64,000 bases of DNA, from positions 38,524 through 102,523 of IMG/VR virus record IMGVR_UViG_3300028797_000094; one strand, 5' to 3'. Position numbers and translations under genes: made by a program. This document shows, piece after piece, positions 47,560 through 55,449 of this stretch; position 1 is the stretch's first letter; each line of letters opens with the position of its first letter. The notes beneath the pieces are model-generated. The model was not told the origin of the DNA and did not search any database. It saw only the letters and a program-made list of their open reading frames with translations. The DNA is from a virus. Lineage: Duplodnaviria > Heunggongvirae > Uroviricota > Caudoviricetes.

Positions 47560-48202
47560 TATTAGAAACAAATGTATTATTTGTGGCAAAGCTGTTAATG
47601 GCTTTGGAATGATTTGTGACGATTGCAAAGACGCAATTGAGTGGGCAAAGAGATGCATGGAGACTTCAAAGAAACAACGCGAAGGTTATCCATTTATAAA
47701 ACTTCATGAAGAAGAAACAGTTGAAGATGAGCCTGAAGAAGGAACTGTTGATGAAAAAGAGCTGACATATGAAGAAGCTTTAGATATTTTATTATCACAT
47801 GTAGATTTTTCGCTAGAAAATATGATGTGTAAAGATGCTCTTAAAGAAGCTATTGAGTGGGCAAAGAAATGTAAAGCAACACCAGAAATTATTGTTGCTG
47901 ATGGAATTGATGAAAATGCTGTTGAAGAATTATTAAGAAAAGAAAGACCATTTACAAAAGCCAGTGAAATTAAATTGGAAGTTCTAAGTTTTGAAGAACA
48001 ATTAGGTTGTCCATTAGAAGTTAGAGAGAAAGCCTTTGATAAAGGTTTTTATGATGAAAGTGGAAATCATTATACCTGTGAACATTATGTTCCTTATTTA
48101 AAAGAAATGCACACAAGGGGAATTATGTCTCATACTTCAAAGTGTTTCAAACTGAAAGATTACAAAAAGACTTGGTGGCTGAAGGCTGATAAGAGTGAAT
48201 AG
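47552..48202 (+). CDS. Hypothetical protein with N-terminal Zn finger
   Basis: CIICG..ICDDC; repeated EWAK(R/K)C. Confidence 0.7.
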   Translation: MNDIRNKCIICGKAVNGFGMICDDCKDAIEWAKRCMETSKKQREGYPFIKLHEEETVEDEPEEGTVDEKELTYEEALDILLSHVDFSLENMMCKDALKEAIEWAKKCKATPEIIVADGIDENAVEELLRKERPFTKASEIKLEVLSFEEQLGCPLEVREKAFDKGFYDESGNHYTCEHYVPYLKEMHTRGIMSHTSKCFKLKDYKKTWWLKADKSE

Positions 48203-48216
48203 ATATAAAAGGAAAG

Positions 48217-48251
48217 AAGAACTTAAGTATAAAGCTTAAGTTCTTTTTTTT
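48217..48251 (+). terminator. Intrinsic terminator
   Basis: AAGAACTTAAG-TATAAAG-CTTAAGTTCTT plus Ts. Confidence 0.8.
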
Positions 48252-48568
48252 ATTTTGCCCTAGTTAATAAATAGATAGATAATAGTCAGTTAAGGAGCAG
48301 TAAAATAAAAAAAGTAAAAGAACAATATCCTTAACAAGCATTTATCTTCCTCCCCAGTTAAAAAATATAGTATGAAAGAATATCTATCTATATATAATAA
48401 ATAGTAGAACTATATATAGACATAGAGAAGAAGATACTATATATAGACCTATATATAAGCGGGGAACTATATATAGACAGGGAACTAATACTATATATAG
48501 TAAAGATGCTTGAGTCTGAGGCAGACTCTGATTAATAGACTTAGACTTTAGTGAGTTAGTAAAAAGAC

Positions 48569-48604
48569 TTTTGGCCTCACTTTTGGCATCGCTTTTAGCC
48601 TCGC
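48569..48604 (+). repeat. Three 12-bp tandem repeats TTTT(G/A)GC(C/A)TC(A/G)C
   Basis: Direct reading. Confidence 0.75.
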
Positions 48605-48800
48605 TTGGCGGGAATGCTGGCAAGTATTGCAAGCATTATTGCAAGCATCTGGCAGATCAGTGATGAGCTTATTAAATTATTAAATTAATAAATTATTAGT
48701 ATGCTATGTATTGCTATCACTGTCGCAGTGATGCTTTGACATATACTATATAGACTTTAGACTATTAAAAACAAGCACTTTTAGAAAAATCAGACAAATA

Positions 48801-48818
48801 TTTGCTAAAATAAGCGAA
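48801..48818 (+). promoter_or_regulatory. Class III-like promoter in non-coding DNA
   Basis: TTTGCTAAAATAAG; no SD-led ORF follows. Confidence 0.45.
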
Positions 48819-49100
48819 GGGCATTGAAAAGTCATCATAGGCTTTAGCCCACGCCTCACTCAGCAATCGCGCTGAGCTTTTTTTCGCCCACGCTTCGCCC
48901 ACGCCTAGCCTCGCCTCACCACTAAAGCCAGAGCGACCAGCCAAGCTTAAGCCTTGCATTGCCCTATTAGCACTATATATAGTATAGCGCGGAAGCTATG
49001 TAGAGCCAGGCCTTGCTTCTGTCTATATATAGGAAGACTCTAACCTGTATACTATATATAGAGCGGAGCGCGAAGACTAGGAAGAGCACAAGCGCAAAGC

Positions 49101-49378
49101 CGAAATTAAAATCATTTCTGAATTAAATATACTTACCCTAATACTTTTATATGGGCAAAATAAAAACGCGACCACGGCCAAATTTCGAGCTTAAAATCGC
49201 GTTTTTTTATTAGACTATTAAATTAATAAGGGAAATCGCCGAAATTGCCAAATTTGCCGCTGGCGTTGGCAAAATTGGCGAAATTGCCAAAATTAGCTTT
49301 TGCGCTTAGGCGAAATTCGGCAGGTTGGCGAAATTGCCGAAATTGCCCAGATTAGCTTTTTGGCTAATTGCCGAAATT
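49101..49378. repeat. Cluster of CGAAATT/AATTTCG motifs
   Basis: 8 copies, many as GGCGAAATTGCC. Confidence 0.8.
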
Positions 49379-49489
49379 TCCTTTTTTACCTTTTTGTCTA
49401 TATATAGTAAAAAGCCGTAGACTACTATATATAGGCTACAGCTTAATACTTGAAAGAGAATTTATATAATGAAAACAAAACATATTTTT

Positions 49490-49641
49490 TAAAACAGAAA
49501 AGGCCAGGAAAATAAAATTGTTAAAAGAATAACCTGGCCTTGAATGTGAGACAACTAATATATATTTGAGAAAGGAGGATTTGTTTTTTGAATATATATA
49601 GTTAAGGAGGTGTAATTTTTTTATTTGTTATTGCCTCACAT
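49490..49641 (-). ncRNA. Candidate ~150-nt sRNA carrying two anti-Shine-Dalgarno motifs
   Basis: Class II promoter on - (49645-57); nested stems; CACCUCCUUA and UCCUCCUUUCUC; terminator hairpin 49500-49541. Confidence 0.55.
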
Positions 49642-49644
49642 ATT

Positions 49645-49657
49645 ATTATACAATAAA
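49645..49657 (-). promoter_or_regulatory. Class II promoter (minus strand)
   Basis: TTTATTGTATAAT. Confidence 0.65.
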
Positions 49658-49784
49658 CTTTTCAAAAATATATTAGGCTTCAAAAAAAATTTATTGTATA
49701 AAGCGTGGCGCTAACGATACATGCACAGTCGACTCTATTACTATATATAGTATAGGGCGGAGGCTCTATCTGCGCTCACATAAT

Positions 49785-49797
49785 ATTATACAATAAA
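49785..49797 (-). promoter_or_regulatory. Class II promoter (minus strand)
   Basis: TTTATTGTATAAT followed by ATTATGTGAG, like the 49645 copy. Confidence 0.6.
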
Positions 49798-49823
49798 AAG
49801 TACGAAATTTGATCAATTTCGTT

Positions 49824-49887
49824 TGAAAGCGTTTTCATTAAATTCTTTAAATTTTCTATTTACAAATTTGGCCAGATGTGATATAAT
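49824..49887 (+). promoter_or_regulatory. Class I sigmaA promoter with cre-like operator
   Basis: TGAAAGCGTTTTCA; TTTACA 49859; TATAAT 49882. Confidence 0.8.
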
Positions 49888-49924
49888 GTATAATGGGGAA
49901 ATATATATTTTTTTATATATATTA

Positions 49925-49988
49925 TGAAAACGCTTTCGTAAATTTCTTTTAGAAAACTATTTACAAACTAAAGAAAATGTGATATAAT
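49925..49988 (+). promoter_or_regulatory. Class I sigmaA promoter with cre-like operator
   Basis: TGAAAACGCTTTCG; TTTACA 49960; TATAAT 49983. Confidence 0.8.
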
Positions 49989-50116
49989 AAATGGGGAGAT
50001 TTTTTTATTTTTTTTTATTAATAAATTATTAAATTATTAAAACCGTAATTTGCTCAATTTCATATACTAAAAAAATTAAAAATAATTCCCGAAATTACCC
50101 TAATTTCATTATAAAA

Positions 50117-50127
50117 TATTGTATAAT
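50117..50127 (+). promoter_or_regulatory. Class II promoter
   Basis: TATTGTATAAT. Confidence 0.6.
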
Positions 50128-50313
50128 AATATGTAAGGGGAAGTTTCCCATACTATATAATTACGTTAGTAATTATATAGTATTAATTATAGCTATAGCT
50201 ATAGACTTTAGCATAGCTTATATATAGACATATGCTTATATTATATGCTATAGGCTTATACTATAGACATATGCATATGTCATATGGCGCGCACACTTAG
50301 AAAGGAAATCAGT

Positions 50314-54951: not shown

Positions 54952-55449
54952 ATGGTTAAAACAAAAGAATTAGAAAAAGAAGTTAAAGAAGAAGTTGTAG
55001 AGGATAACTATGATGTTATCTATAAAAGTAAATTACTAAATAAAGAATTTACTGATCTTGATGAATTAAAGAAAGCGGAATCTGAATACAAATTAGAAGT
55101 CACTAAGAAAGAAGAAGCTAAGCTTGCTAGAAAAGAAGAAGCTGCTGTTGTACAAAAAGCTATTGACAATTATGAAATTGCTAAAGTAAAAGCTAATGAT
55201 GTAATTGCTAATGCTTATAAGGAATACAAGGATAAAGTAGCAGAAGCTGAAAAAGCCTTAGCTGAGATCGAGAAAACTGCTAGTGAAGCTTTGGATAAAT
55301 TCTTAGCTGATCATCCAGAGGGCTTCCACTATACTTACAAATCAGAAGATGGAAAAGTAGTTAGAGAATATAACTATTATAAAAATCGTTATGATGTATT
55401 TGATAACTTCAATCAATTCACAGAGCTATTAAAGAAACTTTGGTTTTAG
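54952..55449 (+). CDS. Coiled-coil hypothetical protein
   Basis: SD AGGAG. Confidence 0.75.
   Translation: MVKTKELEKEVKEEVVEDNYDVIYKSKLLNKEFTDLDELKKAESEYKLEVTKKEEAKLARKEEAAVVQKAIDNYEIAKVKANDVIANAYKEYKDKVAEAEKALAEIEKTASEALDKFLADHPEGFHYTYKSEDGKVVREYNYYKNRYDVFDNFNQFTELLKKLWF

Follow-up and report, generated by a model that had tools for sequence, protein, structure and literature searches.

In low-GC Gram-positive bacteria, the exposed C-rich regions of RoxS and RsaE base-pair to Shine-Dalgarno (SD) sequences in several mRNAs. Small RNAs (sRNAs) of this type in Bacillota are host-encoded and stress-regulated (PMC10433868). The 6C/B11 sRNA of Actinobacteria carries two unstructured, pyrimidine-rich and redundant loops, either of which pairs with G-rich ribosome-binding sites, and it acts in trans to repress many mRNAs by ribosome competition (PMC10470900). 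The csRNAs of Streptococcus are about 100-150 nucleotides (nt) long and hold anti-SD sequences in unpaired stretches between stem-loops; a block of translation initiation by them has been predicted or shown, and an anti-start codon, CAU, is found in 53 of 61 (PMC3091779). In phage T4 the same sequence is met by a protein, the RegB endoribonuclease, which recognizes the GGAG core of the SD and inactivates early phage mRNAs (PMC1702504). Here we describe an element of a phage genome, at positions 49,490 to 49,657 of an analyzed stretch of 64,000 nt (the window), that appears from its sequence to be a discrete gene for a small non-coding RNA of ~145 nt, running from ~49639 to ~49495 on the minus strand. 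The predicted RNA carries two motifs complementary to strong SDs.

The window comprises bases 38524-102523 of a 237,392-bp IMG/VR record of a rumen phage (IMGVR_UViG_3300028797_000094; G000) in which nearly all genes lie on the plus strand. Many frames are open only when TGA is read as a sense codon, and ARAGORN identified a tRNA with the anticodon UCA at genome position 229814 and 18 other tRNAs near the record end. To the right of the element lies an SNF2 helicase gene whose product is 62% identical to that of JS_HF2_S141_scaffold_159238 (L050), which represents the Jade clade in Borges et al. (bioRxiv 10.1101/2021.08.26.457843), and on the basis of this identity the phage is a relative of the TGA-recoded Jade phages. 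The element sits within a 2.08-kb non-coding island (48203-50283) in which neither strand has a conserved open frame in this phage and its sister (G001), all six frames being interrupted by stops in both. A late-type module ends at 48202, class I and class II units begin near 49860, and the island lies between them.

A preliminary description, made from the sequence alone, had proposed a minus-strand sRNA that mimics the 3' tail of 16S rRNA twice. All of the elements that it listed are present in the minus-strand sequence and fold, and the features of the locus are as follows.

49638..49656, minus strand: class II promoter box TTATTGTATAATAATATGT, with TATAAT at 49650-49645 and a predicted transcription start near 49639
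49631..49641, minus strand: basal stem 5' arm AUGUGAGGCAA in minimum-free-energy folds, sequestering the RNA 5' end
49603..49612, minus strand: anti-SD motif 1 (CACCUCCUUA), unpaired within a 29-nt bulge (predicted probability of being unpaired, P(unpaired), 1.0)
49591..49601, minus strand: inner AU stem 5' arm CUAUAUAUAUU in the minimum-free-energy fold
49568..49579, minus strand: anti-SD motif 2, UCCUCCUUUCUC, in a 24-nt apical loop (P(unpaired) 0.99)
49555..49566, minus strand: inner AU stem 3' arm AAUAUAUAUUAG in the minimum-free-energy fold
49544..49554, minus strand: basal stem 3' arm UUGUCUCACAU in minimum-free-energy folds
49491..49541, minus strand: 3' hairpin, a likely intrinsic terminator, of 9 bp with a 24-nt loop, then UUUCUGUUUU to 49491
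49409..49442, minus strand: second hairpin, a putative back-up terminator, GCUGUAG..CUACGGC followed by UUUUU, with a CTATATATAG palindrome in its loop
49778..49796, minus strand: sibling class II box P1, 140 nt upstream, given for context and outside the sRNA

The core of the promoter box, TTGTATAATA, occurs in 44 copies genome-wide. Roughly 32 of these stand 26-90 nt upstream of a same-strand predicted gene start, often right after a terminator; among the rest are copies ahead of the suppressor tRNA, of the tRNA array and of a large region of non-coding RNA. An open reading frame (ORF) within 690 nt is missing only for the two minus-strand copies, at 49653 and 49793. The labels 'class II' and 'middle' for this box are presumptive. 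P1 would yield a product of about 105 nt (49672-49796) that ends at a U8 run, spans a conserved CTATATATAG palindrome and has little structure (z = -1.5). The sister phage lacks its CCUCC, with GCUUCUGCUC in place of GCCUCCGCCC, and this CCUCC forms part of a repeated DNA unit; a second anti-SD RNA from P1 was rejected on these grounds. Between the two minus-strand boxes lies a truncated class II-like box on the plus strand, TTTATTGTATAAAGCG (49686-49700), the first 16 nt of which are kept in the sister phage.

The minimum-free-energy fold of the minus strand has the architecture given above (-29.7 kcal/mol, z = -5.45). The basal stem AUGUGAGGCAA/UUGUCUCACAU includes one G.U pair, the plus-strand equivalent of which is an A.C mismatch. 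In the 3' hairpin, AAGGCCAGG (49541-49533) pairs with CCUGGCCUU (49508-49500) to form a stem in which 6 of 9 bp are GC pairs, then followed by UUUUCUGUUUU; the terminator scanner missed this hairpin because its rule takes loops of 3-8 nt, and the U-run after it is found on the minus strand only. The second terminator hairpin has a counterpart hairpin with U6 in L009, the corresponding locus of the sister phage, and in L030, and the two putative terminators in succession on the minus strand would limit the transcript to about 145-230 nt. Across three RNAs, from the window, from L009 and from an unrelated contig (L031), the CCUCC seeds are unpaired in predicted folds with P(unpaired) of 0.72-1.0. 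The element has what a generic SD-occluding sRNA would have, namely its own promoter box and likely terminator without an ORF, and an SD-complementary seed that is predicted to be single-stranded. Among strong SDs of the phage (U)UAAGGAGG is the most frequent, and the seed is complementary to it. A discrete structured RNA is probably made from the minus strand; that it is made, when and in what abundance, and that it pairs with SDs, is what we infer.

The sister phage, IMGVR_UViG_3300021400_000048 (223 kb, helicase 83% identical), has a homologous island at ~68% nucleotide identity in which both minus-strand boxes are retained. The basal stem reads GUGAGGCAA/UUGUCUCAC in the window and GUAAGCAUAUAUU/GAUAUAUGCUUAC in L009, and four of the nine shared pairs are altered on both sides, from G-C to A-U, G.U to C-G, C-G to A-U and A-U to U-A. 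These four double changes are compensatory; covariation in relatives had been named as a check in the preliminary description. The 3' hairpin of L009 has a 10-bp stem of wholly different sequence, including a U.G pair, and a loop of ~25 nt. Three more G001-type variants from other samples (L052, L053 and L056) carry the element, and the class II box is conserved in all of them, in L009 and in L057, a partial G000-type variant that also retains CACCUCCUUAAC. In G001-type RNAs, motif 1 is ACCUCCUUUC, lies in a loop and is invariant across the four variants, and the inner AU stem is not conserved. A C-to-U change in L053 converts a basal-stem G-C pair to G.U, for which the plus strand would have an A.C mismatch. 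When five sequences were run through RNAalifold, the window RNA was misaligned in its 3' half, and pair counts were used within the G001-type group only. An extra TTGTATAATA box and an insert of ~150 nt separate the sRNA promoter from P1 in L057 (1-330, minus strand), so that the island is being remodelled at the strain level.

The second motif is less constant. In L009 it is AUCCUCCUUAAU and lies in the linker after the basal stem rather than in an apical loop; L053 also has AUCCUCCUUAAU, L052 and L056 have UUUACUCCUUAG, and the constant part is CUCCUUA. The proposed double mimicry of the 16S rRNA tail takes the likeness too literally. An exposed CCUCCUU(A/U) is conserved; the identities of 10-12 nt to the E. 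coli and B. subtilis tails differ between relatives and are not kept. Nor is the second motif a fixed copy of the tail, given that its position shifts and that two of the four G001-type variants have only CUCCUUA. The word 'decoy' is also abandoned here, as the RNA would compete with 16S rRNA for mRNA and would not decoy ribosomes.

An independent analogue was retrieved from metagenomes with a promoter-only pattern. It lies on a 1,059-bp contig (JAEEGL010233094.1; L031) whose flanking genes use in-frame TGA, one of them being 33% identical to the window gene at 54952-55449. The box stands in gene-sense orientation and is followed by ~125 nt of sequence unrelated to the window RNA. The RNA would begin with a hairpin, GUGAGUU..GGCUCAC, that includes two G.U pairs, followed by a second hairpin; the first motif, AUCCUCCCUU, lies in a single-stranded linker and the second, UUCCUCCUGG, in the apical loop of a clear hairpin with U7 after it. 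CCUCC was not in the query, so that L031 offers unbiased support for the design, and its promoter and U7 terminator fix the sense in which CCUCC is read. No relatives of L031 were found in viral contigs, and its sole homologue (L060) begins at the gene, with the upstream RNA region outside the contig.

The sRNA-promoter pattern found G001 alone in viral contigs, and the metagenome scan with the promoter only gave duplicates of G000 and G001 plus L031; the 19-mer box pattern in viral contigs gave chance matches in AT-rich viruses, and the promoter with two CCTCC gave one unrelated chance match (L049) in genome contigs. Rfam returned no match for the whole window at the gathering threshold, and cmscan at E up to 1 returned no sRNA family match for the island, L030 or L031.

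Two CCUCC motifs within 60 nt occur at only two non-coding places in the genome, the present one and 229711/229742. When each RNA was shuffled at its own composition, at least two CCUCC arose with a probability of 0.002 (window), 0.0004 (L009) and 0.002 (L031). Read from the other side, the plus strand has 67 GGAGG, of which 47 precede a start codon and ORF, 13 lie within long ORFs and ~7 are orphans, three of the latter falling in the island. The preliminary description had held that neither plus-strand SD leads to a start codon. This is true of the second, which has no ATG, GTG or TTG within 14 nt, and not of the first, which has TTG at spacings of 2 and 9 nt, opening frames of 6 and 5 codons; conservation of these two frames was sought in relatives and not found. 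Plus-strand micro-ORFs were rejected, as no frame is conserved among the window, L009 and L031, and a leaderless AUG-UGA frame at the RNA 5' end was rejected because L009 has AUG UAA. Fold stability does not pick the strand, since the plus strand folds nearly as well (z = -5.28 versus -5.45). The orientation of the box, the U-run, the L031 analogue and the G.U pairs valid on the minus strand only, which are present in the window, L009 and L053, uphold the original minus-strand reading, and the minus strand is likely the transcribed one.

Compared with the described systems, the predicted RNA resembles 6C/B11 in having two unpaired, pyrimidine-rich, SD-complementary motifs, and differs in that 6C/B11 is chromosomal with C-run loops, whereas the element is phage-encoded with CCUCCUU and has another fold and promoter. 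Two loops with runs of at least 6 C and a match to the family model would define 6C/B11; the loops here hold CCUCC, and there is no Rfam match. With the csRNAs the RNA shares a similar length and an unpaired anti-SD between stem-loops. Their promoter is CiaR-dependent, in contrast to the phage box here, and the RNA does not match their family model in Rfam. The anti-start codon of csRNAs is also missing, since neither CCUCC of the window is preceded by a CAU at 5-10 nt on its 5' side, and CAU-N8-CCUCC occurs only at the G001-type motif 1. RoxS and RsaE differ in family and fold, and Rfam gives no match to them here. The likeness to T4 RegB is one of proposed purpose only, the inactivation of early mRNAs at GGAG; RegB is a protein that acts as a nuclease with the aid of ribosomal protein S1, whereas RNA-RNA pairing is proposed here and cleavage is not implied.

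The nearest parallel by position is found in the Jade representative itself. Upstream of the SNF2 helicase, the minus strand of L050 (1870-5200) carries a tmRNA gene (Rfam RF00023, 97 bits) together with ~20 tRNA genes, behind three TTGTATAAT boxes and with unassigned spacers of roughly 300 nt between the tRNAs. Genomic position, strand and boxes are the same as those of the element, and minus-strand expression of stable RNA at this position therefore looks ancestral. The products differ, being tRNAs and tmRNA in L050, where the sole CACCUCC is paired in a hairpin.

The candidate targets are suggested by the distribution of SDs. For SD counts, each predicted gene was assigned to the nearest upstream promoter type, with class I defined as the sigma-70-like TTTACA-N-TGnTATAAT. 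A perfect GGAGG SD precedes 13 of 26 class I genes, 17 of 121 class II genes and 10 of 94 late-box genes (Fisher test, class I versus class II, P = 1.6e-4; class I versus late, P = 4e-5). SD strength thus tracks promoter class, with GGAGG in half of class I genes versus 11-14% elsewhere, and the earlier proposal that strong GGAGG SDs mark early genes is upheld to this extent. A cluster of class I promoters lies directly right of the island, and the genes there are presumed to be early and TGA-free; 17 of the 18 TTTACA-N-TGnTATAAT promoters in the genome fall within 45757-72171. The commonest GGAGG context is TAAGGAGG (9 of 41). In the likely target genes the GGAGG SD mostly takes the form UUAAGGAGG, the complement of CCUCCUUAA, which is contained in motif 1 of the window and in the second motif of L009 and L053, and the TTAAGGAGG read by L009 class I genes is likewise an exact complement of CCUCCUUAA. 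Among 249 predicted initiation regions, the best predicted duplexes are with TGA-free genes (-15 to -17 kcal/mol). Target prediction gives nothing beyond generic strong SDs.

The most likely reading of these data is an sRNA that would occlude SDs, with the strong-SD class I genes of the phage as favored targets. Transcription would start from the class II box, and the first bases, GUGAG, would be locked in the stem that closes the 5' end. The two CCUCCUU-type seeds would be kept single-stranded and the RNA would be ended by a hairpin and U-run. The exposed seeds could then pair with (U)UAAGGAGG SDs and bar 30S subunits from those mRNAs. Once class II transcription is on, translation of early genes would be preferentially damped, since perfect GGAGG SDs mark the genes behind class I promoters, along with any strong-SD host translation. 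We hold this model to be a serious candidate that falls somewhat short of an even chance.

Several observations weigh against it. With a seed that equals the 16S tail, the RNA would have SD strength as its sole basis of specificity, and could hold its own against ribosomes only at very high abundance. Extended complementarity to any single phage mRNA was not found among duplex energies for the 249 initiation regions, the mean SD strength of TGA-free genes is little different from that of TGA-containing ones, and a conserved anti-start-codon element was sought and not found. The context AAAGGAGG, which matches motif 2 of the window, is used by no GGAGG-led phage gene, and any targets of this motif would be host mRNAs. 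The second seed is variable, being ACUCCUUAG in L052 and L056, the L009-type 3' hairpin has a weak U-run, and loops of 24-25 nt are unusual for intrinsic terminators. The near-equal fold of the plus strand also counts here. At this locus the element is confined to one lineage (helicase identity of ~80% or more), and L011, L013, L050 and L058 lack an RNA homologue there. The element is, furthermore, embedded in an island of CTATATATAG palindromes, which possibly has a DNA-level role that uses transcripts otherwise.

This last point leads to the foremost rival, in which the RNA serves the island rather than translation. It could act as a primer, as a countertranscript, or as a transcript that forms an R-loop at, or opens, a replication origin or other DNA-level control region, and CCUCC would be incidental or used for a purpose apart from SD pairing. 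Ten of the 11 CTATATATAG palindromes of the genome lie in 48410-49741, against 1.2 expected, and repeats of the GGCRAAATTGCC type lie at 49230-49390. All three promoter classes meet at the island, the second minus-strand class II box stands 140 nt upstream, and the T4 origins oriF and oriG, each a middle promoter with a downstream unwinding element, provide a precedent for the design. A T4-type R-loop origin would have an AT-rich unwinding element close to the promoter and a transcript that stays as an R-loop and primes DNA synthesis. AT-rich DNA does follow the box; however, the two minus-strand terminators would bound the transcript to about 145-230 nt, and the RNA stems covary. An R-loop primer needs neither compensatory stem changes nor an exposed, conserved CCUCCUU. 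Neither a plus-strand partner transcript nor an adjacent rep gene is evident, and the L031 RNA stands between two ordinary genes, outside any such island. We regard this explanation as unlikely, yet as the one that most merits attention after SD occlusion. A still smaller chance is given to the idea that there is no functional RNA. The boxes would then be DNA elements, either binding sites for a factor or a convergent set of promoters and terminators by which the late module is insulated from the early one, with any short transcript as a by-product. The island does divide the late-type module (end 48202) from the class I and II units (near 49860), the sibling P1 product has a z of only -1.5 and a body that is little conserved, and a degenerate plus-strand box occurs at ~49686-49700. 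Such a by-product would hardly have two stems maintained through double substitutions, an exposed ACCUCCUUUC that is invariant across variants with diverged flanks, or a like design elsewhere in L031.

The plus strand could instead be the functional one, its SDs loading ribosomes for micro-ORFs or its GGA motifs acting as a sponge for a CsrA-type protein. AAGGAGG does occur twice on the plus strand, where the fold is nearly as stable (z = -5.28), a sigma-70-like TTAATA-16-TATAAT lies at 49443-49470, one L009 SD has ATG TTT TAA 8 nt on, and the strand opposite 229711/229742 reads GGAGG, 8-9 nt and ATG, with frames of 3 and 20 codons. These points lose their force against the lack of any frame conserved among the window, L009 and L031, the second SD of the window without a start within 14 nt, and the absence of a plus-strand terminator. 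The site at 49443 is not kept in L009, and such sites number 18 against 13 expected by shuffling; the G.U pairs turn into A.C mismatches, and in L031 the promoter and U7 terminator set the sense of CCUCC. A sponge of the CsrB/RsmZ type would have repeated GGA in hairpin loops and a plus-strand promoter and terminator, and no such promoter or terminator is conserved here. We consider a plus-strand function very improbable. Chance, as purine- or pyrimidine-rich words in an AT-rich spacer, is the least credible account of the motifs. Base composition predicts ~11 AAGGAGG on each strand against the 17 seen, and the chance of two lying within 45 nt of each other somewhere in the genome is estimated at ~0.05. 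On the other hand, the motifs are kept in the sister lineage despite ~68% identity and rearrangement, they occur independently in L031 (P = 0.002), and both are unpaired in all folds.

Other features of the island may be noted. Eight of the ten island palindromes are ACTATATATAG, the CTATATATAG motif is also present in the G001 island, and the palindromes look like an array of candidate protein-binding sites. At 49230-49390 there is a cluster of near-palindromes (GCCGAAATTGCC, GGCGAAATTGCC and GGCAAAATTGGC), partly kept in L009, two of which scored as plus-strand terminator-like hairpins. The plus strand at 48801-48885 has a late-box variant, TTTGCTAAAATA, and ~50 nt further on a clean terminator, CTCAGCAATCGCGCTGAG with T7, with no ORF between, and this could be another short transcript within the island.

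In distant relatives the equivalent position is occupied by other non-coding RNAs, a minus-strand ribbon-helix-helix gene, the tRNA/tmRNA array or unrelated repeats. A relative of 60% identity (L011:5450-6250, plus strand) has three tandem boxes of the TTGTATAATATAATGT type, each followed by ~200 nt of GC-richer non-coding sequence that ends in a terminator; one of these contains AGCCUCCUAAAAC, and none has a meaningful Rfam match at E up to 1. In L013 (1080-1260, minus strand), upstream of the helicase module, a box TGTTGTATAATAAAT stands ahead of a small ribbon-helix-helix-like gene, which is followed by a longer ORF with an in-frame TGA.

The second dual-CCUCC element lies outside the window, in non-coding sequence just upstream of the gene for the suppressor tRNA(UCA) (G000:C1:229540-229800; L033:740-1000). 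G000 and G001 share this stretch at ~99% identity, so that it is better conserved than the tRNA, and it has no Rfam match. A GC-rich, structured 5' part is followed by two AAUUCCUCCU motifs 31 nt apart, one of them in an 18-nt hairpin loop. The opposite strand at 229711-229746 carries GGAGG, 8-9 nt and ATG, and the two frames so opened have 3 codons (5 in G001) and 20 codons (MFCLFVIHSTTICFKNNTLY).

A more speculative extension of the SD-occlusion model is a class switch, in which the class II RNA, through its anti-SD, would silence GGAGG-led, standard-code early genes and strong-SD host mRNAs as TGA-to-Trp machinery takes over, the element at 229711-229746 belonging to the same kit. We think this doubtful. 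Within such a switch, the latter element might conceivably also mask SD-like elements such as the RF2-frameshifting one. A link of the RNA to the code switch is as yet unsupported, and what speaks for it is the logic of timing and the second dual-CCUCC element beside the suppressor tRNA.

Known phage-derived trans-acting sRNAs come mostly from enterobacterial prophages, and lytic and jumbo phages have, to our knowledge, hardly been explored for regulatory RNAs. Full-text searches of one collection found no paper describing a phage-encoded anti-SD sRNA, and we know of no phage in which an RNA replaces a RegB-type nuclease for early shut-off. If the SD-occlusion model is true, a virulent code-switching phage would discriminate between its own gene classes by SD strength, with an exposed anti-SD copy as its tool. 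Initiation regions of early genes that carry UUAAGGAGG would then be repressed and late genes with weaker SDs spared. Such an RNA would be a simple and portable means of timing translation, and would add an extra layer to the early versus late staging of TGA-recoded phages.

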